Positions 2,503 to 59,245 of a stretch of DNA of 64,000 bases are shown one piece after another. This DNA comes from Kiritimatiellia bacterium. Lineage in GTDB: Bacteria > Verrucomicrobiota > Kiritimatiellia > RFP12 > JBMNHG01. The stretch's first letter is position 1, and every line of letters starts with the position of its first letter. A program made the translations under genes and the position numbers. The stretch is taken from the NCBI GenBank assembly GCA_045627705.1, contig JAZQOE010000124.1, positions 17,865-81,864 on the forward strand, given 5' to 3'. The notes beneath the pieces were generated by a model that was given only the letters and a program-made list of their open reading frames with translations, ran no database searches and had not been told where the DNA came from.

Positions 2503-3396
2503 ATGGTCAGTCGAGAGACAAATGGGTTTACGCTGGTTGAGCTGGCGCTGGTGGTGCTCCTTGTGGGCATTCTGGCCTCGCTTGCCGTCGTGCGCCTGGG
2601 TAATACCACTGCCATCGCAAAACGGCGCGCCGCGGAGGCGGATGTCTGTTCGTTGCGCAATGCGATGGTTGGATCGGATGCCATGGCGGGCTACCTCGGC
2701 GACATGGGCGCAATCCCCGGTTTTTCGCCCGCGTTGCTCCGCGTGGGCAATCTCCTCTGTGCAACGAATCTCTTCGGGGTGGGGGATGTGCGGCTTGATG
2801 CCGACGACGGATTTGCTCGGCAGGGAATCGCATCTGCATCCGCTTTCACTTCCTGGGATGACGAAGCGAATCGCGGGTGGCGCGGCCCATATCTTTCCGT
2901 CTCGGCGGGAATAACAACCCCCGAAGGCGAATCCCATCTTTTCCCGCATGCCGATGACATCCGCTTCGATGGCGATTCAACTTTTGCGGCGCGCCGTTTT
3001 TTCCCTTCCGTTTCGCATCTTTCGCTCCCCGCTGAATATCGCAATCCCGATGGCGGCAAGCGTTCCGTCTATGGCTTCGCCACGGAGCCTGCGATCGGCG
3101 ATCCATGGGGCAATCCATACGTTCTCCAGATCCCGCCACCACAGGCGTTCGCTTCGCCGGACACCGTTTCGGCGCGGACGCGCTTCCGCTATGCGCGTTT
3201 CGTCTCGGCCGGTCCAGACGGCATACTTTCTACGCCGTGCTTTCCCGTTGATGCCGCGACATGGGGTGAAGAAACCCGCCGTGTTTCGCGCTTGGCCGGA
3301 CGCGACGCCCGCGGCGCATCCGCCCGCGGTGACGACATCGTGCTTTTCATAAACCGTTCGGATGTCTTTGAGGAAGACGAGTCGATCGAGCCATGA
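2503..3396 (+). CDS. type II secretion / type IV pilus pseudopilin, GspG-like
   Basis: Prepilin leader MVSRETNG|FTLVELALVVLLVGILASLAV, with the class III signal peptide G|F cleavage site. C-terminal DPWGNPY and GPDG motifs are typical of GspG major pseudopilins. Confidence 0.75.
   Translation: MVSRETNGFTLVELALVVLLVGILASLAVVRLGNTTAIAKRRAAEADVCSLRNAMVGSDAMAGYLGDMGAIPGFSPALLRVGNLLCATNLFGVGDVRLDADDGFARQGIASASAFTSWDDEANRGWRGPYLSVSAGITTPEGESHLFPHADDIRFDGDSTFAARRFFPSVSHLSLPAEYRNPDGGKRSVYGFATEPAIGDPWGNPYVLQIPPPQAFASPDTVSARTRFRYARFVSAGPDGILSTPCFPVDAATWGEETRRVSRLAGRDARGASARGDDIVLFINRSDVFEEDESIEP
2619..2632. repeat. copy of the dispersed palindromic motif core (aaaacggcgcgccg) inside pseudopilin gene 1
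   Basis: gcaaaacggcgcgccgcgg. Encodes AKRRAA. Confidence 0.4.
2986..3002. repeat. copy of the dispersed palindromic motif (gcggcgcgccgtttttt) inside pseudopilin gene 1
   Basis: cttttgcggcgcgccgttttttcc. Encodes FAARRFFP. Confidence 0.5.
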
Positions 3397-4442
3397 AACA
3401 TCCCTTCCATTCCATTGCATCGCGCTTTCGCGACCTCCCGCCGCGCCACGCATTCACACTTATCGAACTAGTGGTCGTACTCGTCCTGATTGGCGTGCTG
3501 ACGCATCTGCTTGTCGGCGAAATGTCGCGCTTTCAAACCCGTCGTCTCAATGAAGCGGCGGACACCCAACTCGAATCCCTCCGCCTCGCAATCGCTGGTT
3601 CTCCCGATTACCGCGATGCGACTGGCGCGCGCATCCGCGAAGGCTTTGTCGCCGATATGGGCCGTGCCCCGCGCGCTCTTCGCATCTATCCCGATGATGC
3701 TGGTTCCCCGCTTTCCCTCCGCGAACTTTGGGAGCGCCCTTCCGATGTCGCGGAATTCGCGCTCCGCCCTGCGACAGCCGAGAATCTTCTGCCGTCATGC
3801 GCTTCTCTCGCCGACCAGGATGTCTGCGTTCCTTGTGGCTGGCGCGGTCCCTACATCCAGCTCCCGATTTCGCAGACGCGTCTTCGCGATCCATGGGGCA
3901 ATACGATCGAAACGCCTGACACTGCTTCCTCGCCGCGCATTTTCGGCGCCGATACGAACGCCGTCGTTTCCGAGGGCGAAGAGATCGTGTGGGTGCGACA
4001 CCTCGGCGCCGATGGACGCGACGATTCGCTTGCTGGAGCGCACGGCGCGTTCCATGCGCTCGATCGTGATCGTTGGCTCCGTGTCGATGCCGATTCGGAT
4101 GCCAGGCCCGCAACGAGTCTTCTCGTGACGACCCGAGTGCTTGATTCGACGGGTTGCGCCGATGCGATGTCTATCGGTCGAAGCGTAACGGGCGTCCTTT
4201 ACTCCCCATGTGGCAGCGCGATTACCGCGGCCGTCGAAACCGCGACACTCCCTGCGGGGGCGAGCGTCAACCTCCGTTTCAAGGGCCTCACTCCTGGTAC
4301 GCGCATTCTCCGTTTGCGCCTTGGCGGACTTGCGCCAGAAGACCCGATGATTGTGGGCGTCGTCCATTCACTTCGGTTGCAGCCTGGCGACAACTCATTC
4401 GTTGAAACCTTCCGCACGGACTCGCAGGTGGTGGCGCCATGA
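3393..4442 (+). CDS. prepilin-type N-terminal cleavage/methylation domain protein (second pseudopilin, GspG/GspH-like)
   Basis: AFTLIELVVVLVLIGVL N-terminal helix. DPWGNT and LGADGRDD motifs. The start overlaps the upstream stop (ATGA), indicating translational coupling. Confidence 0.65.
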   Translation: MKHPFHSIASRFRDLPPRHAFTLIELVVVLVLIGVLTHLLVGEMSRFQTRRLNEAADTQLESLRLAIAGSPDYRDATGARIREGFVADMGRAPRALRIYPDDAGSPLSLRELWERPSDVAEFALRPATAENLLPSCASLADQDVCVPCGWRGPYIQLPISQTRLRDPWGNTIETPDTASSPRIFGADTNAVVSEGEEIVWVRHLGADGRDDSLAGAHGAFHALDRDRWLRVDADSDARPATSLLVTTRVLDSTGCADAMSIGRSVTGVLYSPCGSAITAAVETATLPAGASVNLRFKGLTPGTRILRLRLGGLAPEDPMIVGVVHSLRLQPGDNSFVETFRTDSQVVAP

Positions 4443-5530
4443 AGAACAATGCGTTCGATATCGTCGTGGCGATTACGCCCGATGGCGTTTCCCGCCTTGA
4501 TCTGCCAGATGGCAAGTTGCTTTCTTCGAGCCAACGCGACGGAAGCCCCTCCGAGGCCCTTGCCATTGCGTTCGGCTTGGGGCGTGTCAAACGCAATGCC
4601 CGCGTGCTTGTGCTTTCGACGGACTTCTTTTCGCAGACGGTTCGTCTTCCACGTCGCCAGATCGCTGGCCTTTCCGCTGCGGAAATCGAGACGGCGCTAG
4701 CGTATGAGATCGAGCCTTTCTCGAACATCCCGCGCGATCAGGGGGTCGCCGCATTCCAGGCGTTGACTGATGAAGGCGCCGACACCTCATCCTGGCGCAC
4801 GGTGCAAATCGCCCGCGCGGACTGGGACTCGCTTGATGCCGCCGCCATTGCCGCAGACGCAAGGCTCGCGGGATGTGCGCCTTTGGCTTCGCTCCCCGCT
4901 TCGGACGAAGCGATTGCCGGCGCTTTGCTGCAATACGCTTCCGATGCACTTTCATCTCCGCCGCGCATCCCTGTCGCCGCCGTGGCATCCACCACCGCAA
5001 AATCGCAGGTAATGCCCAAGGTAGCCGCGACGCTTTACCTGCTAGTCGCAATCGCTTGCCTTCTCCACTACGTTTTTGTCCCGCGCATGCGTGACAACTT
5101 GCGTACGGATGTCGAAGAGCGCGAAGCCCTCGCGGCGGCAAACGCCACTATCGCGAATGAAATCCGCGCCATCGAAGCACGCTCCGAGCAACTCAAAAAG
5201 AACCTTGCGGCGCGCAACGATGCCGCGCTTTCCCTCTCCGCGTACCGCAAGGCATGGAGTTCGCTCCTCCATGATCTTGTTACGGCCTGTGGCGATGATG
5301 TGATGGTGCGGTCGATTTCCGGTGATGTCCTTTCTGGTGGCGTCATGGTCGAGGCGATTGCGACCGATGTCGATGCCCCCGCATCGTTCATGGTGCGACT
5401 TGCCGATTTGACCGCGAAAAATGGTTGGATGTTGACTCCACGCGATGTGCGCAACGAAACGAAGGGACCATCGTCCTTCCGCTTCTCATTGGAATTTTCC
5501 GGGAAGCCCGATAACGGAGGTGCGAAATGA
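4439..5530 (+). CDS. GspL / PilM-PilN-like inner-membrane assembly protein (cytoplasmic domain, one TM, coiled-coil periplasmic part)
   Basis: Architecture only: an N-terminal ~200 aa soluble domain, a TM helix VAATLYLLVAIACLLHYVFV, then a coiled-coil. Position between the pseudopilins and the GspM-like gene. The start overlaps the upstream stop. Confidence 0.4.
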   Translation: MKNNAFDIVVAITPDGVSRLDLPDGKLLSSSQRDGSPSEALAIAFGLGRVKRNARVLVLSTDFFSQTVRLPRRQIAGLSAAEIETALAYEIEPFSNIPRDQGVAAFQALTDEGADTSSWRTVQIARADWDSLDAAAIAADARLAGCAPLASLPASDEAIAGALLQYASDALSSPPRIPVAAVASTTAKSQVMPKVAATLYLLVAIACLLHYVFVPRMRDNLRTDVEEREALAAANATIANEIRAIEARSEQLKKNLAARNDAALSLSAYRKAWSSLLHDLVTACGDDVMVRSISGDVLSGGVMVEAIATDVDAPASFMVRLADLTAKNGWMLTPRDVRNETKGPSSFRFSLEFSGKPDNGGAK

Positions 5531-6117: not shown

Positions 6118-7253
6118 CCTCCAACACCGCGACTTCTTTCCTCGATTCGATTTTCGCCCTTTGCGAAGCTTCGGGCGCTTCGGATATCCATCTCGCTGCC
6201 GACCAGGTTCCGCGGATGCGAATACAGGGCGATCTCTCGCCCGTAAAAAACGGCGCGCCGCTTTCCGCCGCCGAGTGCGAGTCGATTGCGCTTGGCCTGG
6301 TTGCGACGACTCTTTCGGCGGACGCATCAGATCCGCAGACCGCTGCGCGTGCGGCACTGCGTGCGAGTTGCGCGGTCGATGGCGCGACGACATCGCCAGC
6401 GGGACACCGCTATCGCTTCAACGTCTTCCTCGAGAATTCCCATCCCGCGATCGCCTTGCGCCGTCTCGATGATCGTTTCCTTTCGCTTTCCGAGCTCGGG
6501 CTTCCGCTGGGGCTTGCTGATTTCTGTGTTCAGCCGTACGGGCTCGTGATTGTCACGGGGCCCACTGGTTCGGGCAAGAGCACCACGCTTGCGACGCTTA
6601 TCGACCAAATCAATCGCGAGCGTCATGGCCATATCGTTACCATCGAGGATCCAATCGAATATCTCCACAAGTCGCAGTCGTGCCTTGTGCGACAGCGTCA
6701 GATCGGACGTGACGCGAAGAGCTTCAACGCCGCGCTTGTCGAATCGTTGCGACAGGATCCAGACGTGATTCTTGTTGGCGAAATCCGCGAGATCGACACC
6801 ATCCGCACTGCGATCACAGCGGCGGAAACTGGGCATCTCGTATTCACGACGCTGCATGCGGGCGATTGCGTTGGTGCCATCGAGCGCCTTGTCTCGGTTT
6901 TTCCTGCGGATGAGCAGGACGGCATACGGCGTCAGCTCGCGATGGTCTTACGCGGTGTTTTCGCGCAGCATCTTCTGCCTCCTGCCGTGCCAGGCACACG
7001 GCGCGTCGCATGCGGCGAGCTGCTTCTCGTGAATACCGCGATTGCGAATCTGATCGCGACGGGACGCGATGCGCAGATTTATTCGGCGATTGAAAGCGGG
7101 CGTAAATTCGGCATGCGAACTCTCGACCAGGAGTTGGCGTTCCTTTGCTCAAGCGGAAAGATTACGGAGCAGACCGCTCTTGCGATGTCGCGGAATCCCG
7201 ATGTCCTTCGCAGTTGGATCCGCTCGGATGCGAATCGCGAGGATGCGAGATGA
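6108..7253 (+). CDS. pilT: type IV pilus retraction (twitching motility) ATPase PilT
   Basis: Walker A GPTGSGKSTTLA, Asp box TIEDPIEY, His box TTLHAGDCVGAIERL, and the PilT-specific AIANLIATGRDAQIYSAIESGRKFGMRTLDQEL (AIRNLIRE-type) motif. Start chosen at MDVTSNTATSFLDSIF. The listed ORF starts at 6087. Confidence 0.85.
   Translation: MDVTSNTATSFLDSIFALCEASGASDIHLAADQVPRMRIQGDLSPVKNGAPLSAAECESIALGLVATTLSADASDPQTAARAALRASCAVDGATTSPAGHRYRFNVFLENSHPAIALRRLDDRFLSLSELGLPLGLADFCVQPYGLVIVTGPTGSGKSTTLATLIDQINRERHGHIVTIEDPIEYLHKSQSCLVRQRQIGRDAKSFNAALVESLRQDPDVILVGEIREIDTIRTAITAAETGHLVFTTLHAGDCVGAIERLVSVFPADEQDGIRRQLAMVLRGVFAQHLLPPAVPGTRRVACGELLLVNTAIANLIATGRDAQIYSAIESGRKFGMRTLDQELAFLCSSGKITEQTALAMSRNPDVLRSWIRSDANREDAR
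6245..6261. repeat. copy of the dispersed palindromic motif (aaaaaacggcgcgccgc) inside pilT
   Basis: Exact 15-mer aaaaacggcgcgccg. Encodes VKNGAPLS. Confidence 0.5.
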
Positions 7254-9556: not shown

Positions 9557-9646
9557 TATGATGCCTCGTCGCAGTTGTTGCGTGGTTGAGTGTCGGGTGA
9601 ATGAATCGGCCGAAAAAGCGAGGCGATGCGGGATCGCGATGGATTT

Positions 9647-9663
9647 CGCGGCGCGCCGTTTTT
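9647..9663. repeat. copy of the dispersed palindromic motif (cgcggcgcgccgttttt), intergenic between truB and the CofE-like gene
   Basis: Exact match to the core ggcgcgccgttttt. Confidence 0.5.
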
Positions 9664-10953: not shown

Positions 10954-11186
10954 AACGGTGGACGATTATATTTGTGCCGCGCCCGCCCACGCAAGGATTT
11001 TCTGTGTCCGCGCTTTCAGCCTGACCGCTTCCCATACGTGAGACACTTTCATCGTCTCGTCGCCGAAATAGTTGATGACCTTTGCCTTCGGGAGATCGCT
11101 CTTTGGGCACAGGGCGCCCGCCATGTCGTTTTCTGGCTGGATAGTGATTCGATGGGGCAGGGCGGTTTGCCCAAAACAGTTGCGGG

Positions 11187-11229
11187 GCGCCGCGAAACGG
11201 GTCTCCATTTCGCGGCGCGCCGCTTTTTT
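11187..11229. terminator. GC-rich hairpin carrying the dispersed palindromic motif, downstream of giant gene 1 (bidirectional terminator candidate)
   Basis: gcgccgcgaaa-cgggtctcc-atttcgcggcgcgccgc followed by tttttt on the + strand. The A-run on the other side is weak. Confidence 0.4.
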
Positions 11230-19236: not shown

Positions 19237-20163
19237 ATGCCGAATGTCCGAAATAGACGCAACCGCCGCATCTGGCGCTGCCGCGATTTCGAGTTGCATC
19301 TCGATGATGGCCCATTCCTGATGGGCATCGTCAATGCGACGCCCGACTCGTTCCATGCGGCGTCGCGCGGGGTGACGGCGAACGCCGCCGTTTCGCTTGG
19401 CGTTCGCCTTGTGTGCGAAGGCGCGGACATCATCGATGTCGGCGGGGAATCGACCCGTCCCGGCGCGCGGCACATATCGGAAGCGGAAGAAACAAGGCGT
19501 GTCGTCCCGGTCATTGCCGGCCTTCGCGAGCAAGTCGATCTCCCGATTTCCATCGATACCAGCCATGCGTCCGTGGCGCGCGCCGCGATCGAAGCTGGCG
19601 CGTCGATCGTGAACGACGTTTCCGCCGGCGCCGATCCCGAAATGGCGGAAGTCGTACGCGAATCAGGCGCGGGCTGGATACTCATGCGGTCGTGCGTACC
19701 GCCCGGCACCCCGGGCAAACCATGCGACGGCGACTTCGCCGAGGATTGCGCGCACTGCGTGGCATGCGATGCGGCGGAGTATCTTTCCGCCCGTGCCAAT
19801 GCAGCGCTTGCCGCTGGCGTCGAACGGGGCCGCATCGCGCTTGATCCTGGTGTCGGGTTCACGAATTCCGCCGAGATGGACATCCATCTCATCGCGGCTA
19901 TCGCAAAGCTTGCGAAGCTTGGATATCCCGTTCTGGCCGGGGTTTCGCGCAAGCGCTTCATCGCCGGAATCGCGGGAGATGGCGCGGCGGCGGAGGATCG
20001 TCTTGCCGGCAGCATCGCCGCCGTTCTCGCGTGCGCGCGAAGGGGTGCGCACGTGCTGCGCGTGCACGACGTGCGCGAGACGCGCCAGGCGCTGGCCGTT
20101 GACCGCGCGGTTGCCGCCGCTGAAAAAACGGCGCGCCGTTTTTCCGGGAAGGAGGCGTGTTGA
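19237..20163 (+). CDS. folP: dihydropteroate synthase
   Basis: LMGIVNATPDSFHAAS (the ILNVTPDSFSDGG motif). ADIIDVGGESTRPG. ISIDTSHASVARAAIEAGASIVNDVSAG. GVGFTNS...VSRKRFI. Confidence 0.85.
   Translation: MPNVRNRRNRRIWRCRDFELHLDDGPFLMGIVNATPDSFHAASRGVTANAAVSLGVRLVCEGADIIDVGGESTRPGARHISEAEETRRVVPVIAGLREQVDLPISIDTSHASVARAAIEAGASIVNDVSAGADPEMAEVVRESGAGWILMRSCVPPGTPGKPCDGDFAEDCAHCVACDAAEYLSARANAALAAGVERGRIALDPGVGFTNSAEMDIHLIAAIAKLAKLGYPVLAGVSRKRFIAGIAGDGAAAEDRLAGSIAAVLACARRGAHVLRVHDVRETRQALAVDRAVAAAEKTARRFSGKEAC
20123..20143. repeat. perfect 21-bp palindrome aaaaaacggcgcgccgttttt at the 3' end of folP, 22 bp before the cdaA start
   Basis: Exact self-complementary copy of the dispersed motif. Encodes EKTARRF in folP. 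Confidence 0.6.
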
Positions 20164-22220: not shown

Positions 22221-24917
22221 ATGAACACACTTTATGCAAAACGAGGCAAGGCCGCATCCATCAGGAAAACCTGGAAGATGCGCTTCCTTGGCTTCATCAT
22301 CCTCCCTTGCGTGATCCTGCCGATTCTCTCGATGGTGTTGTACGACGCCAAGGACGTTCCATGGGTGCAGGATCCACCGAACAATCCGATCAACAATCCG
22401 CTTGGCCCGGTGGGCGCCTACACGGCCTGGGTCGGCTATTTCCTTTTCGGGTTCGCATCGTGGCTGGGTCCGATCTGGATGGCGGTGTATGGTTTCATGC
22501 TCGCTTCGAGCAAGGCCGTTGGACGCCTGTTCAAGCGGCTGATCTGGTGCCTGCTTTCCATCGCCTCCGCGGCCAGCATCGTGCAATTCGCCAATTCCAG
22601 CCTTGCCGAACAGTGCAAGTCAATCGAACTCGACTCATCCGGCGGGATCATCGGCAGATTCATGATGGACGAAGTGCTTGTCCGCTTCGTTGGACCGGTC
22701 GGGGGAATCTTCATCGCGGCCGTTCTGCTGTTGCTGTCGGTTGCGATCTTCGCCGGTTTCGGCAACATCGGAATCTTCTTCAACTGGATTGGCGAAAAGT
22801 GGAGCGACGCCAGGATGCGCCGTCTCGACCAGGCGGAAAAGGATCGCATAATCGCCGAACGCGAGCGCAAGGCCGAGGAGAAGGCCGAGCGTGAACGCGA
22901 ACGCGAGGAGGCGCGGGCGGAGAAGGAACGCCTCCGCGAGGAGGCCCGCGCCGAGAAGGAGCGCATCCGCGAGGAGAAGGAACGCGAGCGCGAAGAGCGC
23001 AGGCGCGAACAGGAAGAACGCGATCGCGAGGAGCGCGAGCGTGAAGAGCGCCGCCGCGAGGAAATCATCAGGGCCGAGGAACAGCGCGCCGCGGAAGAAC
23101 GCGCCCGCGCCGAAGCCGCGGCGGAAGAGGACGACGACGAAGGCGGCCGCCTCGAATCGGATTCGATCGACATGCGGCCTCGCGACTACGAACCGGAACA
23201 GCCGGTCCAGCCCGCTCCGCGCGCCCCTGCGCCGGTCTCGGCCACGCCTGCCGCCCCCGAAGCGCCATACGAACTTCCTTCGACCCGTCTGCTCGCGCCT
23301 GTCCCGGAATCGACGGCGGTCTATGGCGATACCGACGAAAAGCAGCGTATCCTTGTCGAGACGCTCCGCGAGTTCCGTCTCGAGGTCGAGGTCACGCACG
23401 TCGAGCGCGGTCCGGTTGTGACGACCTTCGAGCTTCTTCCCGCCTCCGGCATCCGCCCCGAGCAGATTGCCGCCATGGCCAAGACCATCGAGATGCGCCT
23501 TCGCGCAACGGGCATCCGCATCGAGGCGCCAATCCCCGGCAAGGGCGTGGTCGGCGTGGAAATCCCGAACGAAAAGGCGTGCGCCGTGACTGTGCGCGAA
23601 ATCCTCGAGGGCCCAACATGGAAGGAGGCCGAGAAGAAGATGTTCCTGCCGATGCTGCTCGGCAAGGATGCGAGCGGCCACGACCTCGTCTGCGACCTCG
23701 CTTCGATCCCGCACCTTCTCATCGCCGGTGCTACGGGTTCCGGCAAATCCGTCTGCACAAACGCGATTCTCACGGGTCTCCTGATGTCGCGCACGCCAGA
23801 CCAGTTGCGCCTCATCCTCGTCGATCCGAAGGTCGTCGAATTCTCCGGCTACAATGCCATCCCGCATCTCGTCGTGCCAATCATCACCGATCCGAAGAAG
23901 GTTTCGCTCGGCCTGGTATGGGCCATCCAGGAGATGGAGAAGCGCTACCAGATTCTCGCGAAGGCCGGCGTGAAGAACATCGCGTCGTACAACGCCCGCG
24001 CCATGCAGGTCCAGCAGGACTTCTTCGACAACGGCGCCCAGCCGCCCCCGAAGCAGGAGAAGATGCCGTATATCGTGATCGTCATCGACGAACTTGCGGA
24101 CCTGATGCTCCAGGTCGGCCGCGAAATCGACGACTCCATCTCACGCCTCGCGGCAAAGGCCCGCGCTGTCGGCATACACCTCATCCTCGCGACGCAGCGA
24201 CCGACGGTGAATGTCGTCACGGGCACCATCAAGGCGAACATCGCCGGCCGCATCGCCTTCCAGGTCGCGTCACAGGTCGATAGCAAGACAATCCTCGACG
24301 GCAAGGGCGCGGAGTCGCTCATCGGCCATGGCGACATGCTCTTCCTAAATCCGCGCGCAAGCAAGGTCATCCGCGCGCAGGGCGCGTACATCGGCGACGA
24401 AGATGCCGAGGCTGTCACCAAGTTCATCCGCGCACAGGCCGCCCCGCGATACCTGCAGGAGGTCCAGGACCAGCTTGATGCCGCCGACAACGAAGAACAG
24501 CAGTCCCAGTCGCGCTATCGCCGCGGCGGCGGCCCGTCGCGCCCTGCGCCGTCATCCGGCGGCGGATCGCAGCGCACGCCGTCCGCGCAAGGCGGCGCGC
24601 CGCTTCCCGCCGACCCCGGTGACCAGGATTTCGGCGGCGACGACGCGGATGCCGACGAAATCCTCTACCAGCGCGCGCTCCAGGTCGTGCGCGAGACGCA
24701 TCGCGCATCGACATCTTCCATCCAGCGCCGCCTCCGCATCGGCTACACCCGCGCCGCGCGTCTCGTGGATCTCATGGAGGAACGCGGCATAGTCGGCCCG
24801 CCACGCGGTTCCGACCCGCGCGAAATCCTGGTCGATCTCGATGGCGAGGTGCCGAACAATGCGGCGACTGGCTTTGACGACGATAGCGCCGATGATTCCA
24901 TCGACGAAGGGAACTAA
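22221..24917 (+). CDS. ftsK: DNA translocase FtsK/SpoIIIE
   Basis: N-terminal TM helices. A long charged E/R/K-rich linker. Motor domain with LLIAGATGSGKSVCTNAIL, VDPKVVEFSGY, IVIVIDELADLM and LILATQRPTVNVVTGTIKAN. C-terminal winged-helix gamma domain (LYQRALQVVRE...SIQRRLRIGYTRAARLVDLME). Start chosen at MNTLYAKRGK. The listed ORF starts at 22119. Confidence 0.85.
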   Translation: MNTLYAKRGKAASIRKTWKMRFLGFIILPCVILPILSMVLYDAKDVPWVQDPPNNPINNPLGPVGAYTAWVGYFLFGFASWLGPIWMAVYGFMLASSKAVGRLFKRLIWCLLSIASAASIVQFANSSLAEQCKSIELDSSGGIIGRFMMDEVLVRFVGPVGGIFIAAVLLLLSVAIFAGFGNIGIFFNWIGEKWSDARMRRLDQAEKDRIIAERERKAEEKAEREREREEARAEKERLREEARAEKERIREEKEREREERRREQEERDREEREREERRREEIIRAEEQRAAEERARAEAAAEEDDDEGGRLESDSIDMRPRDYEPEQPVQPAPRAPAPVSATPAAPEAPYELPSTRLLAPVPESTAVYGDTDEKQRILVETLREFRLEVEVTHVERGPVVTTFELLPASGIRPEQIAAMAKTIEMRLRATGIRIEAPIPGKGVVGVEIPNEKACAVTVREILEGPTWKEAEKKMFLPMLLGKDASGHDLVCDLASIPHLLIAGATGSGKSVCTNAILTGLLMSRTPDQLRLILVDPKVVEFSGYNAIPHLVVPIITDPKKVSLGLVWAIQEMEKRYQILAKAGVKNIASYNARAMQVQQDFFDNGAQPPPKQEKMPYIVIVIDELADLMLQVGREIDDSISRLAAKARAVGIHLILATQRPTVNVVTGTIKANIAGRIAFQVASQVDSKTILDGKGAESLIGHGDMLFLNPRASKVIRAQGAYIGDEDAEAVTKFIRAQAAPRYLQEVQDQLDAADNEEQQSQSRYRRGGGPSRPAPSSGGGSQRTPSAQGGAPLPADPGDQDFGGDDADADEILYQRALQVVRETHRASTSSIQRRLRIGYTRAARLVDLMEERGIVGPPRGSDPREILVDLDGEVPNNAATGFDDDSADDSIDEGN

Positions 24918-25985: not shown

Positions 25986-27338
25986 ATGGACGCACCGACA
26001 ATCGGCTTCATCTCCCTCGGCTGCGCGAAGAACCTGGTCGATTCGCAGGTGATGGCCGGTGCCCTCATGGATGCCGGCATCGCGCTCGCGGCGGTTGACG
26101 AGGCCGACGTAATACTCGTAAACACCTGCGCATTCGTCCAGGACGCGCGCGACGAGGCGATGCGCAACATCGACTGGGCCTGCGGACAAAAGACCGCGGG
26201 CAACTGCCGCGCCGTGATCGTCGCCGGCTGCCTTCCCCAGCGATACAAGGGTGCGCTTGCGAAAGTCTTCCCGCAAGTCGATGCATTCATCGGCGTCGAT
26301 GAACTCGACCTGATTGGCGAAGTCGCGCTCGCCGCGCTGAAACGACGCAAGCGCTCCGCCGCCGAAGTTCGCGTTGGCGAAGGCCTCCCATGCAGGGTGT
26401 TCAATCCCACGCGCCCAGCATTGCGCTTCTCCGGCGAGCATTGCGCCTTCCTGAAGATCGCCGAAGGATGCATGCACGCATGCGCATACTGCGCGATTCC
26501 AGGCATACGCGGACGACAGCGCTCGCGCACGCTTCCAGACATTGTCAACGAGGCAAGGGCGTTGCTCGACACAGGCGTGAAGGAACTCACGCTCATCGCA
26601 CAGGACACGACCGCGTACGGACGAGACAAGAAAAACGGCGCGCCGCGTCTCCCGGAACTGCTCCGCGCGCTTGACGCCCTCGATGGCGACTTCTGGCTTC
26701 GTCTGCTCTACGGTCATCCGGGCACTGTTGACGATGCGCTTCTCGATGCGATGTCGTCATGCCGCCACGTTGTCCCATACCTCGATCTTCCAATCCAGCA
26801 TAGTTCCCCCGCGATCCTGCGCGCCATGCACCGCGCCGATACGGTAAAGGCTGTCGCCGATCTTCCACGACGCCTTCGCGCCGCCATTCCTTCCATCACC
26901 CTTCGCACGACATGCATGGTTGGCTTCCCCGGAGAAGGCGAAGAGGAGTTCGATCAGCTGCTGGACTACGTGGGAGAAGCGCGTTTCGACGCCCTTGGCG
27001 CCTTTGTGTTCTGTCCGGAAGAGGACACCCCGGCCTACGGGTTGCCGATTCCTCCCGCGGAGGTTTCGGAGGCGCGCCGCGAAAAACTGCTCGCCCTGCA
27101 GCAGCGGATCATGCGCGAAAACCACAGGGCGCTTGTCGGGCGGACCGATCGCGCATTGCTGTTGCAACCGCCGTCCCGCAAGGGTGGCGCGTGGCTTGCT
27201 CGCACAACACGTCAGGCGCCAGAAGTCGATGGTTGGACGCGCGTGAGCAGCGTACCGTCATCCGCCAAGCCAGGCGATTTCATTTCCGTCCGCTACACTG
27301 GCGGACATGGATGCGACCTTACCGCGTGCATCTGTTAA
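25986..27338 (+). CDS. rimO: ribosomal protein S12 methylthiotransferase RimO (radical-SAM MTTase with TRAM domain)
   Basis: IGFISLGCAKNLVDSQVM (MTTase N-domain). Radical-SAM CxxxCxxC (CMHACAYCAIP). C-terminal TRAM-like region. Confidence 0.8.
   Translation: MDAPTIGFISLGCAKNLVDSQVMAGALMDAGIALAAVDEADVILVNTCAFVQDARDEAMRNIDWACGQKTAGNCRAVIVAGCLPQRYKGALAKVFPQVDAFIGVDELDLIGEVALAALKRRKRSAAEVRVGEGLPCRVFNPTRPALRFSGEHCAFLKIAEGCMHACAYCAIPGIRGRQRSRTLPDIVNEARALLDTGVKELTLIAQDTTAYGRDKKNGAPRLPELLRALDALDGDFWLRLLYGHPGTVDDALLDAMSSCRHVVPYLDLPIQHSSPAILRAMHRADTVKAVADLPRRLRAAIPSITLRTTCMVGFPGEGEEEFDQLLDYVGEARFDALGAFVFCPEEDTPAYGLPIPPAEVSEARREKLLALQQRIMRENHRALVGRTDRALLLQPPSRKGGAWLARTTRQAPEVDGWTRVSSVPSSAKPGDFISVRYTGGHGCDLTACIC
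26631..26645. repeat. copy of the dispersed palindromic motif (aaaaacggcgcgccg) inside rimO
   Basis: Exact 15-mer. Encodes KNGAP. Confidence 0.5.
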
Positions 27339-36370: not shown

Positions 36371-36392
36371 CCGGTTCCCGGTCGCAAAAAAA

Positions 36393-36439
36393 CGGAGCGC
36401 CGCGAAATGCCCCCGCATTTTCGCGGCGCGCCGTTTTTT
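36393..36439 (+). terminator. rho-independent terminator of giant gene 2 (built from the dispersed palindromic motif)
   Basis: aaaaaaacggagcgccgcgaaatgc-cccc-gcattttcgcggcgcgccg followed by tttttt. Confidence 0.7.
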
Positions 36440-39500: not shown

Positions 39501-42500
39501 CCGCAGGCGCACACAGTTCGACCGGCTCCATCCATATCGAGGCCGGCAGCGGCATCAACGAAATCGTCCTTACCTCCGGCGCGACCTTCGCCGAGACCGG
39601 CACCGGGACAGTCGCGCTACGCGTCATCGCCTATCCCGGCTTCCTCGTGGTGGATCCGGAGAATGGCGATGACGATGCGAGCGGCACCATCGGAAATCCG
39701 ATGCGCACTATCGACCGTGCTCTGTCGGTACTTTCCGCGGGCGATGAAATCCACCTGCTTCCGGGCACTTACAATGCTTCCAACGTGGCATTCCCCATTG
39801 AGCCAGGCACGATCGCCCTCGTAGGCTGCGACTCTACCGGCGCTCTCGCCGAAGACAGCTCGCTGTGCGTCATCGATGGCGCGAACGCCGTGAAGAACCT
39901 CGTGAAGTATGTCGGAGTCTCCGGTTCCTCCACCGGCCGCATCGCGAACGTGTGGCTGCGCAATTCCATGGAGGAAGCAGTCTATTGCGAAGACTCCGAT
40001 GTCGTCGTGAGCAACGACTTCTTCACGCAGTCCGCCCCCAAGGGCGAGAATGGCGGCGCCCTCCGCGTCCACAATATCAGCCATGTCGAAGCCGATGATT
40101 GCTGCTTCAGTGGCATGGTCCGCCGCGCCGTCGTCAATTGCACGGCGGTTGACTCATCGGCCGCAAAGAGTTTCACGGCGCGCCGCTCGGTCTTCATCGA
40201 CAACACGAACTACCAGGCTTCGATCGGGGCGAACGATGGCGGTCCGTTTACAATCACCGTCGAGGATTCCGACTTCATCCGCAACTGCGGCAATGCCAAT
40301 ACGGGCGTCCATGACGCCTACGCTTCCGCCGTCGCTTATGTCAACAACGACCACCTGATCATGGATCGCTGCCGCTTCTTCGGCAACACCGGCAACCATA
40401 TAATCGGCCAGGAATACATGGGCAACTACACCTGCCGTATTTCGAACTCGCTGTTCGTCGAGAATAACAACAACAAGTCCGCCTTCCACGGCTATTCCGG
40501 TCACATCGAGATCCACAACTGCACCTTCCTGCGCAACTCCGGCGGCTATGCCGGCCGCATTATCACGACGGCCATATACAATGGCATTTTCGTTGATGAT
40601 GGCGCACTTTCCAAGGCCGATACGGGAGATGGCGATGAATCCTCGAGAATCCAGCTCCACGACTGCATTGTCCACAATATTACCGGGGGCCAGAGATTCA
40701 ACGCCGCCGCCAGCACCGGCGTCGTGGATGTCGAACCCAAGCTGGCGAACGCTGGAGTCGCATGGGACGCCGAAGGCTTTGACGCCCGCCCGCTTCCCTA
40801 CAGCCCTGCAATCGATGCGGGCGACAACGCCTTCGTCCAGGGCGAGTACGACCTTGCCGGCAATCCCCGCATTGCCGACAACACGGATTCCGGCTCCGCT
40901 GTCGTGGATTTCGGCTGCTACGAGTCGCTTTTCCATGCGGAAGTTGAGCCGACCTTCCGCGTTCCGCTGCAAGGCTCCATCGCCGGCTACCGCGGCGTGA
41001 CTTACTCGATCCCGATATCTATCGCCCCCGCCGTGTCCGGTCCCGTCGAGGCGGTTGTCACATACGGTCCCGGCCTTGCCGGCCCGGAGACACTCTCCTT
41101 TGAGGATGGCGCCGATACAGTTATCCTCGCGCTCGAGGTGCTCGATTCCGATGCGACCTTTGCGCAGGTCGTCATCAGCGAGTCTGGCACCGAGCACGGC
41201 ATCCTCGATGGCGTCTATGACATCTTCATGGATGATCTGGTCGTGTCTGTTGAAGGAAAGTTGAACTTCTTCGTCCGCGGAGGAGCCGAGATTGACATCC
41301 CGTTCTCCCTGGCGCTTGATGGCGCTGTCGCCCCCGGTGACGTTGCGTTCACGGTTTCGGCGATCCAGGGCGATGGTACCAGCACGGCCGAATGGGTCGG
41401 CGGCGAACCGCTTATCCCCTCCGGCTATCACAGCTCGACTGGCGCAATCCACGTGGTTGGCGGGTCCGGGCTGAACACCGTGCGAGTCACAACCTCCGCT
41501 TCCGCCTTCGCCGAAACGGATCAGCCGATTGCCGATATCGGGATCGTAGCCCACCCTGGCTACCTCTATGTCGATCCCGTGAACGGAAGCAATGCGAATA
41601 TCGGTTCGCTGGAGCAGCCCCTCGCGACCATCGGCTTCGCGCTCTCCGTGCTAAACGCTGGCGACGAGGTCAGGCTGCTTCCCGGCACCTACTCGGCCGC
41701 CGCCGAAGCCTTCCCGTACCAGCCCGGCATGATTCGGATTGTCGGTTGCGATGCGACTGGCGCTCCCGCCGAAGATCCATCGCTGTGCGTGATCGATGGC
41801 GGCAATGCCGTTGCAAGCCTCTTCCGCTACGAGCTCGTTTCCGGTGATATGGCTGGGCATATCGCGAATGTCTGGTTGCGCGAATCCATCTCCCAGGCCA
41901 TCTACTGCATTGATTCCGATCTCGTGGTAAGCAACGCCTTCTTCACGCAGGGCGTCGGCAACCTCGACGAGTGCGGTGGCATCCGTGCCCACAATGTCTG
42001 CAATACCGAAATGATCGACTGCTGCTTCAGCGGTATGGTGCGCCGCGCCGCGGTCCAGTGTTCCTCCGATGGCGGTACCGGCCCACTGGTTGTCCGTAAC
42101 TGCCAGTTCATCGACAACACGCTGGGTTACGCCTCCGTCGCGTACTACGACGGTGGCAATCGCGGGTTCTCGGCCACGCTTGTCGATTGCGATTTCATCC
42201 GCAATGTCGGCCAGCCCGGCCGCGGTCTCCCCGACTGCTCCGCCTGCGCAGCCGCCTATGTGAACGACAACGCCCTGTACATCGATCGCTGCCGCTTCCT
42301 CGGCAACGGCGGCAACCAGGTGATTGGCGGACGCAACACGCCGTGTTCCATCGCGAACTCGCTCTTCGCCGGCAATAACACGACGGACAGCAACTTCAAG
42401 GGCTGGAACACCAGGCCGCCTGTCGTGAACTGCACATTCGTCGGCAACAGCGGCGGCTACGATGGCTACGGCTTCAGCCCATACTTCCGCAACTGCGTGT

Positions 42501-42877: not shown

Positions 42878-42904
42878 CAATCCATCGCCAACCTAAAATA
42901 ATCG

Positions 42905-42947
42905 GTGCGCCGCGGAATGCCCAACATTCCGCGGCGCACTGTTTTCG
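42905..42947 (+). terminator. rho-independent terminator of giant gene 3
   Basis: gtgcgccgcggaatg-cccaa-cattccgcggcgcac followed by tgttttcg. Confidence 0.7.
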
Positions 42948-43133: not shown

Positions 43134-43176
43134 CATTTCGCGGCGCGCCGCTTGTTTTTGCGGCGCGCCGTTTTTG
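43134..43176. repeat. tandem pair of the dispersed palindromic motif in the carB 5' region
   Basis: catttcgcggcgcgccgcttgttttt then tgcggcgcgccgtttttg. The left arm is a degenerate copy of the terminator-type element (gtgtcccccgtggcatttcgcgg). Confidence 0.5.
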
Positions 43177-49812: not shown

Positions 49813-49908
49813 CCACCGCTTCGCTTGCGGCCCGCACGGTTGACGCCGGGCGGGCCGTTTCTATTTTGGCCCCGATTGACACAATCTCGCGCGAGGACTG
49901 TTCCTGAC

Positions 49909-51590: not shown

Positions 51591-51596
51591 TCGGAT

Positions 51597-53730: not shown

Positions 53731-53821
53731 TAAATTCTGAAATCTGATTTCTTTGCCAAGCCGTTTGTGATACGATGGAACACAATCCGCGATATTGTAC
53801 AATGCGGCATGGAGTCAAGCG

Positions 53822-54907
53822 ATGGCTGTTTCTGTCTGTATCGACAACCTAGTCAAGAAATTCGGCGATTTTACCGCTGTAAACGATGTAAGTCTCCACA
53901 TCGAGCCGGGCGAGATTTTCTTCATGCTCGGCCCTAGCGGATGCGGCAAGACGACGCTCCTTCGCTGCGTTGCCGGTTTTCATACTCCAGATAGCGGGCG
54001 GATCACAATAGGCGACCGCGACATCACTTCGCTTCCGCCATACGTCCGCGATACCGGCATGGTTTTCCAGAGTTATGCGCTTTGGCCTCACATGACGATT
54101 GCGCAAAATGTCGCTTTCGGCCTGGAAATGCGCAACGTGCCGAAGTTCGAGATCGAGCGCCGCGTGAAGACCGCACTCGACCATGTGAAGATCGCAGACC
54201 GCGCAGATTCGAAGCCGAACCAGCTTTCAGGCGGACAGCAACAGCGCGTCGCGCTTGCGCGCGCCCTTGTCATCGAGCCAAAGTGCCTGCTCCTCGACGA
54301 ACCGCTTTCGAATCTCGACGCCAAGTTGCGCCTTGAGATGCGCATCGAGATCCGCCGTATCTGCAAGGATGCCGGCCTTACCGCGCTATATGTCACGCAT
54401 GACCAGAAGGAGGCGCTGGCAATTGCGGACCGTCTCGCCGTCATGCGCGAGGGTTGTCTTCAGCAGGTCGGTTCGCCCGCCGAGGTCTATCGCAATCCCG
54501 CGAACCGCTTTGTCGCTGGCTTTATCGGCGAAGCGAATTTCATCGATGGCAAGGCCGTTTCCACATCGAACGGACGCCTTGCGCTCGAGACTCCGATCGG
54601 CGTATTCGAGGCTCGCATTCCGATGACAGTCGCGGATGCTTCGTCGGCAAGCGCGATTTGCGTTCGTCCAGAAAGCCTGCATCTTCTGCCCGCCGATGCG
54701 GCTCCAGGCGTGAACAGGATGCGCGGTCGCATTATCCAATCCGTATATCAAGGCGAAATCGCGCAGCACGTGGTCGCAGTCGATATCCCGAACGGCGCGC
54801 CGCTTGAGTTCAAGGTTTGCGAACTCGCCCCGATGGCCGGTATCGCCGAGCGCAATGGCGCGGAAGTCATGCTTTCGTTCGAGGCGGAGCAGGCGACGGC
54901 AGTGTAG
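53822..54907 (+). CDS. ABC transporter ATP-binding protein (PotA/FbpC/MalK-type importer ATPase with C-terminal TOBE-like domain)
   Basis: Walker A GPSGCGKTT, ABC signature LSGGQQQRVALARAL, Walker B LLLDEPLSNLD, H-loop VTHDQ. Confidence 0.8.
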   Translation: MAVSVCIDNLVKKFGDFTAVNDVSLHIEPGEIFFMLGPSGCGKTTLLRCVAGFHTPDSGRITIGDRDITSLPPYVRDTGMVFQSYALWPHMTIAQNVAFGLEMRNVPKFEIERRVKTALDHVKIADRADSKPNQLSGGQQQRVALARALVIEPKCLLLDEPLSNLDAKLRLEMRIEIRRICKDAGLTALYVTHDQKEALAIADRLAVMREGCLQQVGSPAEVYRNPANRFVAGFIGEANFIDGKAVSTSNGRLALETPIGVFEARIPMTVADASSASAICVRPESLHLLPADAAPGVNRMRGRIIQSVYQGEIAQHVVAVDIPNGAPLEFKVCELAPMAGIAERNGAEVMLSFEAEQATAV

Positions 54908-57624: not shown

Positions 57625-57648
57625 TTTCCGAACCATGGGCCATCACGC

Positions 57649-59245
57649 AATGAAAACTACAAAAGTCTTTCTCGCTCCAATCGACATTCGCGCCGAAGAT
57701 CCCGACGCGAGGATGGCGGAAATTATTTCCGCGATCAACGAGGCACGCGGACAAGGCGCCAAGCTCGTGGTATTGCCTTCGCTGGTCGATCTCTATGAAG
57801 ATGAAGCCGATAAAATCGCTGCGTCTTCGCAGGGTATCGCGGTTGTAATCGGCGGAGACTATTCGTGCATCGTCATAAAAAACGGCGCGCCGTTTTTTGT
57901 TGGAGAAGGCGAGCTGGCCGAAATCGAGGGACTGGGGCGCGTGGCGCTTCTCCCAAATTCGTCCGAAGATATCTTCATTCCCCGTGATGCCGATGCAGCA
58001 ATCATTTCGGGCTGCGAACCCTTCGCCCGCGGCGAAATCGACAGGCGCGCGTGGTGGTTGTCGAGACTCGCCCGCAAAATCACGATTCCATTCATCTATG
58101 TCAATGCGATTGGCGTTCGCGACGAGGGGAAGGTCGTACGCGCATACGATGGCGCGACAATGGTTTTTGGCGCCGATGGCGCGCGCCTTGATGTTTCAAA
58201 GCCGTTTGACGGCAAGCGGGCGATCGCCACGATCAAGGCGGATGGGACCGTCGATGGCGCGACGTGCGAAGAGCCGAGCGATGGCATCCCGGAAGTTGTC
58301 GCCGCGTTGCGCTATGGCATTTTGCGCTTCCTTTCCGCGCTTCGCATCAAGCGCGTGGTAATCGGCGTCTCCGGCGGAATCGACTCTGCGGTTTCGGCCG
58401 CGCTGTATGGTTCGATCCTTCCGCCCGAAGATATCCTGCTCGTCGGCATGCCCGGTCCATTCACATCGGCGACAACCCGCAATCTCGGCCGTTCGCTGGC
58501 CTCCAACCTCGGCGCGCGCTTCGCTGAAATGCCGATTGGCCCCGCGGTCGATCTCACGCGCTCCGAATTCGCGAATCTCATGAGCGAGGGTCCTGGCGAC
58601 AACACCCCTGGCGCATGGACGCTCTCGCCGTTTGCCATCGAAAACGTGCAGGCGCGCGACCGCGGCTCGCGTGTTCTCGCGGCGGCGGCGGCGGCCTTTG
58701 GCGGTGTCGTGAGCTGCAACGCCAACAAGGCGGAAATCACCATCGGCTACGGCACGCTCTATGGCGACATCCTTGGCTGGCTGGCGTGTCTGGGCGATTT
58801 GTGGAAGGGCGACGTTTACGCTGTCGGCAGGGAACTCAACGAGTCGCACTACAACCGTGAATTGATTCCCGAAGGCATCTTCAAGATCAAGCCCTCGGCG
58901 GAGCTGAGCGAGAAGCAGGCCGTCGAAAAGGGACTAGGCGATCCGCTCGTGTATCCGTATCACGACAAGCTGTTCCGTTCGTGGGTCGAGCATGAGGATG
59001 TCTTCAACGATTCTCTAGAAGCGTATCGTGGCGGAAGACTCGCGAAAGAAATCGGCTACGATGGAGACATTGCAAAGCTCTTCGCAAACGAAGACGAGTT
59101 TGTCGCCGACCTCACGCGCTGGTGGAAACTCTATCGTGGACTCGCCGTCGCGAAACGAATGCAGGCGCCACCCATTTTCGCCGTCACAAACGCACCCTTT
59201 GGCGCCGTCCCCGAATCCCAACTCGCGCCCGTCTTTCCGAAGTAG
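57649..59245 (+). CDS. nadE: glutamine-dependent NAD+ synthetase (degenerate N-terminal CN-hydrolase-like domain plus C-terminal NAD synthetase domain)
   Basis: PP-loop VVIGVSGGIDSAV. EITIGYGTLYGD. The N-terminal ~260 aa resemble a nitrilase-type domain (KLVVLPSL). Start chosen at MKTTKVFLA. The listed ORF 57488 overlaps the SDR gene. Confidence 0.7.
57877..57898. repeat. perfect 22-bp palindrome aaaaaacggcgcgccgtttttt inside nadE
   Basis: Exact self-complementary copy. Encodes IKNGAPFF. Confidence 0.6.

Follow-up and report, generated by a model that had tools for sequence, protein, structure and literature searches.

So far, exact words that are kept inside genes have been described for the uptake signals of Haemophilus and Neisseria as well as for the cyanobacterial palindrome HIP1, whose origin is still debated. 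To our knowledge, sequence-specific uptake signals have been established in two proteobacterial families only, and all the uptake sequences that we know of are asymmetric. Those of the Pasteurellaceae (USS) consist of a 9-bp core, AAGTGCGGT or ACAAGCGGT, with AT-rich flanks, and that of the Neisseriaceae (DUS, GCCGTCTGAA) is bound by the minor pilin ComP. The traits described for USS and DUS are a strong consensus, oppositely oriented close pairs, a preference for noncoding DNA together with many coding copies, a non-insertion origin, AT-rich flanks, and subclade-specific types (PMC1626085). HIP1 (GCGATCGC) is an 8-mer that lies on the orphan methylase targets GATC and CGATCG (PMC4390886), and a recent preprint ties it to transformation efficiency (bioRxiv 10.1101/2024.09.10.611283).

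Here, we analyze a palindromic 12-mer, RCGGCGCGCCGY, in a 64,000-nucleotide stretch of DNA from a Kiritimatiellia bacterium, which we refer to in its full length as the window. We know of no report of such a pattern in this phylum. Like USS, the motif has a short core of exact sequence whose consensus is very strong, AT-rich flanks, many in-gene copies that arose by substitution, close inverted pairs, and subclade-specific types (PMC1626085), but its core is a 10- to 12-bp palindrome instead of an asymmetric word, its density is several-fold lower (below those of H. influenzae and Neisseria), and its host belongs to a different phylum without known competence; the likeness is one at the sequence level. 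DUS are likewise overrepresented 10- to 12-mers with in-gene copies, dialects limited to related species, and inverted pairs used as terminator stems after genes; unlike the motif, they are asymmetric and have no flanking motifs (PMC1626085). HIP1 resembles the motif in being palindromic, hyperabundant in coding and noncoding DNA, and clade-wide and, according to one study, in being conserved beyond protein requirement (PMC5861425). It has no link to terminators, however, and is denser (300-2700 per Mb [PMC4390886], compared to roughly 220-290 per Mb), and the 8-mer contrasts with a unit of 12-20 bp that has runs of A and T. REP/BIME elements likewise are hairpin-forming, GC-rich repeats found at the ends of genes, and the window contains a RAYT-like gene, but REPs are extragenic, imperfect palindromes. 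Finally, the four hairpins described below have the architecture of bidirectional intrinsic terminators (A tract, GC hairpin, T tract), which, in contrast to the motif, have no one genome-wide sequence and are not conserved in coding regions.

RESULTS

The exact core, CGGCGCGCCG, occurs 14 times in the window. This bears out the overrepresentation noted in the original prediction (1.3-2.1 expected): dinucleotide shuffles give 1.32 copies, with 0/100 reaching 14, and Markov-1 to Markov-3 models give 1.4-2.1. Eleven copies had been listed; all 11 positions carry the palindrome, and their coding or intergenic assignments and reading frames were correct. The real count is higher, with nine copies in genes, where six had been placed in open reading frames, and five between genes. 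The three cores that had been missed, because they have no A or T runs, lie at 24593 (ftsK), 40176 (2111-aa protein), and 54793 (ABC ATPase) (Table 1). The predicted form with an A run before and a T run after the core holds as the full 18-mer AAAACGGCGCGCCGTTTT at two sites only, 20125 and 57879; the remaining copies have a run on a single side or none.

Each of the 14 cores has a purine before it and a pyrimidine after it (R...Y), and thus the invariant unit is the 12-mer RCGGCGCGCCGY, a perfect 12-bp palindrome with no asymmetric orientation that is often lengthened by A and T runs. When the window and relatives were pooled (112 kb), the purine at -1 was present in 64/64 half-sites. The oriented 12-mer CGCGCCGTTTTT is the top overrepresented word of the window, with 10 occurrences on both strands compared to 0.03 expected under Markov-3. 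The excess is confined to the exact word: one-mismatch variants of the core are at background (9 in the window), with ∼6.7 copies expected for exact and one-off forms jointly, and none of the other 10-mer palindromes made up of G and C alone has more than 3 copies. Nor is there an enrichment of the inner palindromes, CGCG occurring 959 times (∼1100 expected), GCGCGC 96 times (∼100-137 expected), and GGCGCGCC only 4 times outside the 10-mer, which makes a short methylase site unlikely. Enrichment was sampled over ∼100 kb (the window and protein-anchored samples of relatives), and the core density is 1 per 3.5-4.6 kb.

The coding copies occupy all three reading frames. Synonymous-codon shuffling, which keeps the proteins fixed, predicts 1.31 cores in coding sequence compared to the 9 observed, and 0.16 oriented 14-mers compared to 8; neither count was reached in any of 500 shuffles. 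Two copies lie in one pseudopilin gene, whose product has the prepilin N terminus GFTLVE and N_methyl/GspG-type matches.

Table 1. Positions of the motif copies and associated hairpins in the window
Feature	Position	Sequence	Location	Frame or fold (kcal/mol)
Gene copy	2619..2633	AAAA-CGGCGCGCCG-C	pseudopilin gene 2503-3396	A-K-R-R-A-A
Gene copy	2986..3002	G-CGGCGCGCCG-TTTTTT	pseudopilin gene 2503-3396	A-A-R-R-F-F
Gene copy	6245..6264	AAAAAA-CGGCGCGCCG-CTTT	PilT-like ATPase gene (6087/6108-7253)	V-K-N-G-A-P-L-S
Intergenic copy	9643..9663	ATTTCG-CGGCGCGCCG-TTTTT	between cofE-like gene (9685-10953, -) and truB (8837-9577, -)	
Hairpin H1	11182..11229	arms GCGGGGCGCCGCGAAA / TTTCGCGGCGCGCCGC, then T6	between 1829-aa gene and cofE-like gene, both - strand	-35.4 (+ strand), z -4.4; -37.0 (- strand), z -3.7
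Gene copy	20123..20143	A6-CGGCGCGCCG-T5, full palindrome	folP (19237-20163), final 14 codons; cdaA start (20157) 14 nt further on	
Gene copy	24592..24603	bare 12-mer GCGGCGCGCCGC	ftsK variable linker	G-G-A-P
Gene copy	26631..26646	AAAAA-CGGCGCGCCG-C	rimO radical-SAM domain	K-N-G-A-P
Hairpin H2	36387..36439	A7-CGGAGCGCCGCGAAATGC / GCATTTTCGCGGCGCGCCG-T6	17 nt past stop of 1674-aa gene	-35.9, z -4.55
Gene copy	40175..40186	bare 12-mer ACGGCGCGCCGC	2111-aa beta-helix protein gene	T-A-R-R
Hairpin H3	42903..42941	diverged arms CGGTGCGCCGCGGAATG / CATTCCGCGGCGCACTG	26 nt past stop of 2111-aa gene	-34.4, z -6.6
Hairpin H4	43140..43175	cores 43141 and 43161, 20 nt apart, mutually paired, then T5	stem end 48 nt upstream of carB ATG (43219)	-33.9, z -4.55
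Gene copy	54792..54803	bare 12-mer ACGGCGCGCCGC	ABC-transporter ATPase gene (53795-54907)	N-G-A-P
Gene copy	57877..57898	A6-CGGCGCGCCG-T6, full palindrome	nadE (true start 57650)	I-K-N-G-A-P-F-F

Among orthologous coding sites, 5 genomes share the codon position of the motif in rimO and 4 share it in nadE, with other synonymous sites scrambled. In rimO, GGC GCG CCG is identical in all 5 genomes, whereas identical codon columns otherwise make up just 15% of those comparable; the rimO of the window has one extra codon, which is the source of its A run. In nadE, the site reads AAAACGGCGCGCCGYTTT in 4 genomes, and AAAACGGCGCGCCG is the sole one of 36 comparable three-codon windows that is codon-identical in all four, with the amino acids around it differing between the genomes. 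Distant NadE proteins carry AEDG[KR] at this place, and the nadE peptide was therefore remodelled to carry the motif. The ftsK linker of the relative L076 contains a copy, GGC GGC GCG CCG, in the same linker as the window copy, and there are gains and losses by point change, the L076 ftsK core, for example, being one-off in the window. The rimO, ftsK, and nadE alignments show substitutions and no inserted element, the sole length change being the rimO codon. The word was thus created in place by substitutions (plus one codon in rimO) and not by insertion of an element, reshaping the local peptide in rimO and nadE.

Restriction of the motif to this region, which would have spoken against the original prediction, does not hold, since the core is enriched at other loci of related genomes: protein-anchored samples gave 5 cores compared to 0.69 expected in L076 and 6 compared to 0.65 in a second relative, L093, with all 6 of the latter within called genes. 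In a scan of 185,579 species genomes, at least about 15 of the 74 listed loci with the 18-mer belong to one Kiritimatiellia metagenome-assembled genome (MAG), whose RimO is 73% identical to that of the window; many unrelated genomes among the matches listed have one copy of the 18-mer each. Pairs of copies at a spacing of 19-40 nt occur in this MAG, and most full copies with A run, core, and T run lie ∼25 nt or less past a stop codon, as judged by eye. Carriers of the motif have a RimO at least 73% or a NadE at least 62% identical to that of the window, and no core was found in 35 kb of two more distant Kiritimatiellia-like loci (RimO identity of 58-60%) with a GC content of 0.66-0.68, like that of the window. 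The motif is a feature of a small group of Kiritimatiellia, being present in close relatives and absent from the more distant loci.

The intergenic copies form or adjoin strong terminator-like hairpins. Close inverted pairs build H1, H2, and H4, and H3 is a variant: the right arm of H1 contains an exact core (11213-11222), H2 pairs an exact core on the right with a one-off copy on the left, both cores of H4 lie upstream of the true carB start, and H3 belongs to the same arm family with no exact core. H1 to H3 have arms of ∼17 nt in common and differ in their loops. In H2, H3, and H4, a stable GC stem-loop with a T run lies just downstream of a gene, whereas the uninterrupted T run of H1 (core 11213) and that of the copy at 9649 are antisense to both neighboring genes. 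Single palindromes fold weakly (-10.4 and -10.7 kcal/mol; z of -1.9 and -0.8) into a 3-bp GC stem with A-U pairs that use up the U tract. No match to an Rfam family was found.

DISCUSSION

Our analysis shows that RCGGCGCGCCGY, often in the form A5-core-T5 or ATTTCG-core, is a word specific to one clade, a lineage of Kiritimatiellia, and that it is maintained as a nucleotide sequence in its own right, both in housekeeping genes and at gene ends. The best reading may be that the word is a signal for uptake or self-recognition, of the DUS/USS type, and also provides terminator stems; we would put the probability of this reading at roughly 40%. A protein would recognize the exact duplex sequence, fragments carrying the word would be preferentially bound or taken up by cells, and recombination would fix motif-creating mutations wherever the protein tolerates the resulting peptides (K-N-G-A-P, A-R-R, or R-R-A, in variable loops, linkers, and tails), with established sites being retained. 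Since the core is self-complementary, nearby copies, or a copy and a near-copy, could pair as 10- to 18-bp GC stems, which together with the A and T runs would form bidirectional terminator-like hairpins after genes; this role would account for the intergenic excess.

The original prediction saw in this pattern the hallmark of DUS and USS. The sequence-level signatures that it named are indeed present, along with several others, but the core is palindromic and, unlike in the DUS system, neither of the two window pseudopilins has a ComP_DUS-type domain, even at an E of ≤1. A perfect palindrome is a better match for a symmetric dimer than for a minor pilin. The adjacent pilT operon, taken as a hint of competence, provides no evidence, type IV pilus/T2SS-like genes being common; the window encodes pseudopilins, PilT-like and PilB-like ATPases, a prepilin peptidase, and recA, has no comEC, comEA, dprA, or secretin gene, and a literature search on competence in the class Kiritimatiellia found nothing. 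That the motif represents the first uptake (self-recognition) signal outside the Proteobacteria, palindromic, 12-20 bp long, and in a lineage of the PVC superphylum, is a suggestion that we make tentatively and consider doubtful. If it is true, this uncultured group would be naturally transformable, would take up DNA in a sequence-specific way, and would have a receptor for a symmetric site. With a third case, independent of the other two and from a distant phylum, there would be a new system in which to ask if uptake bias or selection is what spreads such words, and the symmetric site, the A/T-run extensions, and the letter-for-letter conservation in rimO and nadE would be useful features in this respect.

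The main alternative is that an abundant DNA-binding protein of symmetric structure binds the motif or that the motif is the product of a HIP1-like process linked to methylation or repair, with sites kept by selection or biased repair and the terminator stems as a by-product. This explanation is possible, if on balance improbable. A binding site under selection would be just as likely to be conserved at orthologous positions, and such nucleotide-level conservation in coding DNA is what one study reports for HIP1 (PMC5861425); the perfect dyad symmetry, R...Y flanks included, the use of all three reading frames, and the location of all six L093 cores in called genes agree with it as well. However, HIP1 is built on methylase sites (PMC4390886), whereas CGCG, GCGCGC, and GGCGCGCC alone are not enriched here, and HIP1 has neither runs of A and T nor a preference for gene ends. 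The 12-20 bp of the motif exceed the length of a type II methylase site, and in none of the scanned window proteins was a methyltransferase domain detected. The reading as a protein-binding site is also weakened because the sites of the known site-specific nucleoid proteins (Noc, SlmA, MatP, and ParB) are 10-100 times sparser than the motif.

It is unlikely that the motif acts at the RNA level, as a stereotyped stem of the bidirectional intrinsic terminators of this clade or a hairpin for an RNA-binding protein, with incidental coding copies. Such a role would fit the four hairpins of -34 to -37 kcal/mol, which have A/T runs, lie after or between genes, contain exact cores in three of the four cases, and make up the majority of the strong terminator-like hairpins of the window, as well as the position of the full copies past stop codons in the MAG and the fact that a palindrome yields the same RNA from either strand. 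Yet 9 of the 14 cores lie in genes, two of these sites being conserved letter for letter across genomes, and a terminator within rimO or nadE would be expected to be selected against and not retained. Moreover, a hairpin needs complementarity and not one particular sequence, but one-mismatch forms do not rise above background, and the enrichment extends to none of the other GC-only 10-mer palindromes. The weak folds of single palindromes, the antisense T runs at 9649 and 11213, and the lack of an Rfam match also argue against it.

The original prediction had allowed for a REP-type element. A mobile element of the REP/BIME or miniature type, propagated through insertion or a RAYT (Y1) transposase, is very improbable and, for the coding copies, is contradicted by their in-gene, substitution-based origin. 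The shared arms and differing loops of H1 to H3 and the RAYT-like gene at 52666-53679 (Pfam Y1_Tnp, E of 2e-14; NCBIfam REP_Tyr_transpos, 63 bits, below the cutoff of 80) are what such an element would predict, but REPs are extragenic and 9 of 14 cores are in coding sequence and in frame, the alignments contain no insertion beyond the rimO codon, the motif has no GTAG-type 5' tetranucleotide, and the RAYT-like gene is flanked by another exact 23-mer, CTTAAATAGTCTGTCCCTTTAAG. Chance or composition in a GC-rich genome, where GGC, GCG, and CCG are favored codons and Gly-Ala-Pro peptides are common (12 in the window), is refuted by the dinucleotide and synonymous-codon shuffles, by the ≤3 copies of each of the other GC-only palindromes, and by the GC-matched distant relatives without a core.

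Sequences of this Kiritimatiellia clade can readily be binned and assigned to their host with the motif as a marker, and in organisms without genetic tools the motif is a candidate tag that would make DNA transformable. In annotation, terminator predictors will call the motif sites inside genes.

Results

The 64-kb window has 14 copies of the 10-mer palindrome CGGCGCGCCG, hereafter the core, compared to 1.4 to 2.1 copies expected under Markov-1 to Markov-3 models and a mean of 1.32 in dinucleotide-preserving shuffles, of which 0/100 reached 14. The original prediction had counted 11 copies; all are among these cores, and the three that it missed (24593, 40176, and 54793) are not bordered by runs of A or T. 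When all words of the window were surveyed without bias (Markov-3), CGCGCCGTTTTT ranked first, with 10 copies on both strands compared to 0.03 expected; the complete A-core-T 18-mer, AAAACGGCGCGCCGTTTT, is found at two sites only. A purine precedes and a pyrimidine follows all 14 window cores, and R...Y flanks are seen in 64 of 64 half-sites when the window is pooled with the sampled relatives, so that a 12-bp palindrome, RCGGCGCGCCGY, is the invariant unit. There are two classes of half-site, A-run (AAAA-) and G (TCG-, ACG-, or AAG-). Sequences one mismatch away from the core do not rise above background (9 observed; for these and the exact copies combined, ~6.7 would be expected), and every other 10-mer palindrome made of G and C only has 3 copies or fewer in the window. 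The inner palindromes are not enriched there either: CGCG occurs 959 times compared to ~1100 expected, GCGCGC 96 times compared to 100 to 137, and GGCGCGCC only 4 times outside the 10-mer.

After gene calls had been checked by Pfam, NCBIfam, and PDB matches, 9 cores lay in real coding sequence and 5 were intergenic; a database protein of 531 aa with 100% identity confirmed 57650 as the true start of nadE. The coding cores are read in all three frames, with (K)NGAP or GGAP in 5/9. Shuffling synonymous codons within each of 35 genes gave expectations of 1.31 cores and 0.16 oriented 14-mers in coding sequence, compared to 9 and 8 observed (0/500 shuffles in both cases); the coding copies are therefore not explained by codon usage or peptide content. 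Just before the GC core of the nadE and pilT-like copies, the A run read in the K-N frame produces a zero-frame heptamer, A AAA AAC, which has the pattern of a slippery site for −1 frameshifting; the motif probably generates it incidentally.

Features of the window and of the related locus L076
Feature	Position	Strand	Remarks
Core CGGCGCGCCG	2623, 2987, 6251, 9649, 11213, 20129, 24593, 26636, 36424, 40176, 43141, 43161, 54793, 57883
GFTLVE-type pseudopilin gene	2503-3396		2 coding cores
PilT-like ATPase; folP (last codons); ftsK (linker); rimO			1 coding core each
2111-aa beta-helix protein; ABC ATPase; nadE			1 coding core each
A AAA AAC before core	6243-6252 (pilT-like), 57874-57884 (nadE)
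H1	11182-11223		Strong hairpin
H2	36387-36439		Strong hairpin
H3	42903-42941		Arms diverged, no exact core
H4	43140-43171 (to 43175 with T5)		Two cores 20 nt apart, mutually paired, then T5
Pilus or T2SS-like operon	2503-8737		2 large pseudopilins, 2 unassigned ORFs, PilT-like ATPase, PilB/GspE ATPase with MshEN domain
GreA/GreB-domain gene	16929-19193		754 aa
recA, prepilin peptidase gene	48628-50805		Peptidase PilD-type (A24)
RAYT-like gene	52666-53679	−	337 aa, IS200-like Y1 transposase domain (Pfam E 2e-14)
23-mer CTTAAATAGTCTGTCCCTTTAAG	42987-43009, 52594-52616, 53698-53720		3 exact copies
TCTGTCCC, further sites	25034, 27423, 29259, 50787, 51208
GCAGTTGCGGACG	34477-36034, 40276, 42484 (−)		≤1 mismatch
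AAAAACGGCGCGCCG (MAG rimO)	L076 11358-11372

The RimO of the window matches an NCBI protein at 100% identity, and its named relatives are Kiritimatiellia. A scan for the 18-mer across 185,579 species, each represented by one genome, returned at least 74 loci; the source species is not among the matches listed, of which ~15 come from one metagenome-assembled genome (MAG), Kiritimatiellia bacterium SBF912LR0HQ0163 (GC 0.66 to 0.70), and every other genome has 1 or 2. This MAG's RimO shares 73% identity with that of the window, and synteny with the window is seen at the MAG's locus L076 (greA fusion, cdaA, ybbR, ftsK, HTH_25, and rimO). Judged by eye from stop and start codons, the MAG's full A-core-T copies lie mostly just past stop codons and are sometimes paired, 19 to 40 nt apart. 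In samples anchored on proteins and not on the motif, L076 (21 kb) holds 5 cores compared to 0.69 expected, and L093 (12 kb, from a relative with a 74%-identical NadE) holds 6 compared to 0.65, all six in called genes, among them pheT, nadE, and the genes for a CCA/poly(A) polymerase and an SDR. Zero cores occur in 35 kb of GC-similar, distant Kiritimatiellia-like loci (L091, RimO 60% identical, GC 0.68; L092, 58%, GC 0.66), and loci still more distant have at most 1 each. The word is therefore clade-specific, not a GC effect and, in keeping with the original prediction, not confined to this region. The top words of L091 and L092 are ordinary coding repeats, not alternative dialects. A metagenome scan with RimO found distant relatives only (≤55% identical), and the viral scans were uninformative, with the 18-mer on one contig only and one 15-mer match per contig among the matches listed. 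Ten of the ~59 listed non-Kiritimatiellia 18-mer loci (L006, L007, L029, L044, L053, L058, L060, L062, L071, and L075) are from other PVC bacteria, namely, Lentisphaeria, Victivallales, Verrucomicrobiae, Chthoniobacterales, and Planctomycetota, a share that appears to exceed their share of species.

Alignments with related genomes show that it is the DNA sequence of the motif itself that is maintained, and that it was created in place. In rimO, GGC GCG CCG stands at the same place in 5/5 genomes (88 to 73% protein identity), where only 15% of comparable amino-acid-invariant, at least fourfold-degenerate codon columns are identical in all five; the preceding CGC is also common to the four relatives, and the window's gene, one codon longer here, reads AAG AAA AAC compared to AAA CGC or similar in the relatives, which gives the A run. 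In nadE, (A)AAAACGGCGCGCCGYTTT occupies the same position in 4/4 genomes (62 to 74% identity), of 36 comparable three-codon windows, only GAP uses the same codons in every one of the four, and the identical 14-nt run is the gene's second longest, though the amino acids around it differ. More distant NadE proteins, the MAG's included, have AEDG[KR] at the motif site, and thus the subclade's peptide was remodeled to [KE]NGAP[FL][FY]. In the ftsK linker, which is poorly conserved, GGC GGC GCG CCG is present in both the window and L076, and one L076 ftsK core is a one-off sequence at the corresponding window site. None of the rimO, nadE, and ftsK alignments contains an inserted element. A C-terminal extension of the MAG's rimO, absent from the window, includes AAAAACGGCGCGCCG 14 nt past the stop of the convergent downstream gene, so that one copy lies both in a coding tail and at a neighboring gene's end.

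Four terminator-like hairpins of the window, H1 to H4, are strong (−34 to −37 kcal/mol, z −3.7 to −6.6). H1 to H3 have like arms (CGGnGCGCCGCGrAAT...ATTyCGCGGCGCnCCG) and unrelated loops, and a 5′ extension, (GC)ATTTCG, is frequent on intergenic copies. Single full palindromes fold weakly (−10.4 and −10.7 kcal/mol, z −1.9 and −0.8). The T run at 9649 is antisense to both neighbors, truB and a cofE-like gene (both on the − strand), and the uninterrupted T run at 11213 is also on the antisense strand. Rfam and tRNA scans found nothing. H4 ends 48 nt before the ATG of carB (43219), in the leader of a pyrimidine-pathway gene; given this placement, H4 could be an attenuator rather than the upstream gene's terminator. 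The upstream gene already has H3.

Discussion

The palindrome belongs to a known kind of phenomenon, the clade-specific, hyper-abundant oligonucleotide, as do the DNA uptake signals of Neisseria (DUS) and Pasteurellaceae (USS) and the cyanobacterial iterated palindrome HIP1, but it is set apart from these by its long palindromic form, its A/T-run extensions, and its occurrence in a new phylum. Literature searches turned up the core sequence only in cloning primers (AscI sites) among the papers listed, and they retrieved no account of uptake sequences or iterated palindromes in Kiritimatiellia or Verrucomicrobia.

What remains after the exclusions discussed below would be sequence-specific recognition of a symmetric duplex of 12 to 20 bp. 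As described for USS and DUS (PMC1626085), uptake sequences combine a sharply defined consensus and AT-rich flanking DNA with closely spaced inverted pairs that act as terminator stems; their many coding copies arose by substitution, in segments where the protein is tolerant, and their distribution is clade-specific. Because the full trait set matches, we tentatively rank first, with a probability of about 0.4, an uptake or self-recognition signal, which would act through a putative recognition protein and an uptake bias. These two are inferred, whereas enrichment, distribution, conservation, and origin in place are demonstrated. The DUS-like reading of the original prediction thus fits in its traits but sits less easily with three observations: the perfect symmetry of the motif, a density lower than that of known uptake sequences, and a window in which no receptor or competence gene was detected beyond generic pilus parts. 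The same three keep the second-ranked explanation, slightly less probable in our view, close behind: that the motif is a selected site bound by an abundant dimeric protein or the product of methylation or repair of a HIP1-like kind. A role in RNA or termination alone would suit H1 to H4 but explains neither the persistence of exact copies, full A6-core-T6 included, within rimO and nadE nor the use of a single sequence where any complementary stem would do. A miniature mobile element or a REP/RAYT system (a REP-type element was one alternative in the original prediction) is at odds with the in-frame copies in genes, and the repeat on either side of the window's gene for a RAYT-like protein (RAYT, REP-associated tyrosine transposase) is another one, an exact 23-mer. 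As the inner palindromes show no enrichment, a short methylase site is improbable, and chance, composition, and codon usage are excluded by the shuffle and Markov counts and the synonymous-codon shuffles.

Other features of the window

The 23-mer CTTAAATAGTCTGTCCCTTTAAG is unrelated to the palindrome. All three copies are intergenic, upstream of gene starts, and the two that flank the RAYT-like gene are in direct orientation; it could be the REP of this RAYT or a promoter/operator element. Its core, TCTGTCCC, has 8 copies compared to 1.3 expected. The best NCBIfam match of the RAYT-like protein, which is longer than typical RAYTs, is the REP-associated tyrosine transposase, at 63 bits under a cut-off of 80. 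Another over-represented word, GCAGTTGCGGACG (6 occurrences compared to 0.24 expected), is unrelated to the palindrome and is a repeated coding segment of giant PKD/beta-helix surface proteins of 1674 and 2111 aa. The window has no secretin gene; recA is directly followed by the prepilin peptidase gene, separate from the pilus or T2SS-like operon. In the 754-aa protein, the GreA/GreB domains are only C-terminal (residues 593 to 734), after a long N-terminal extension, and an HTH_GRAD domain is recorded for the gene's syntenic counterpart in the MAG.
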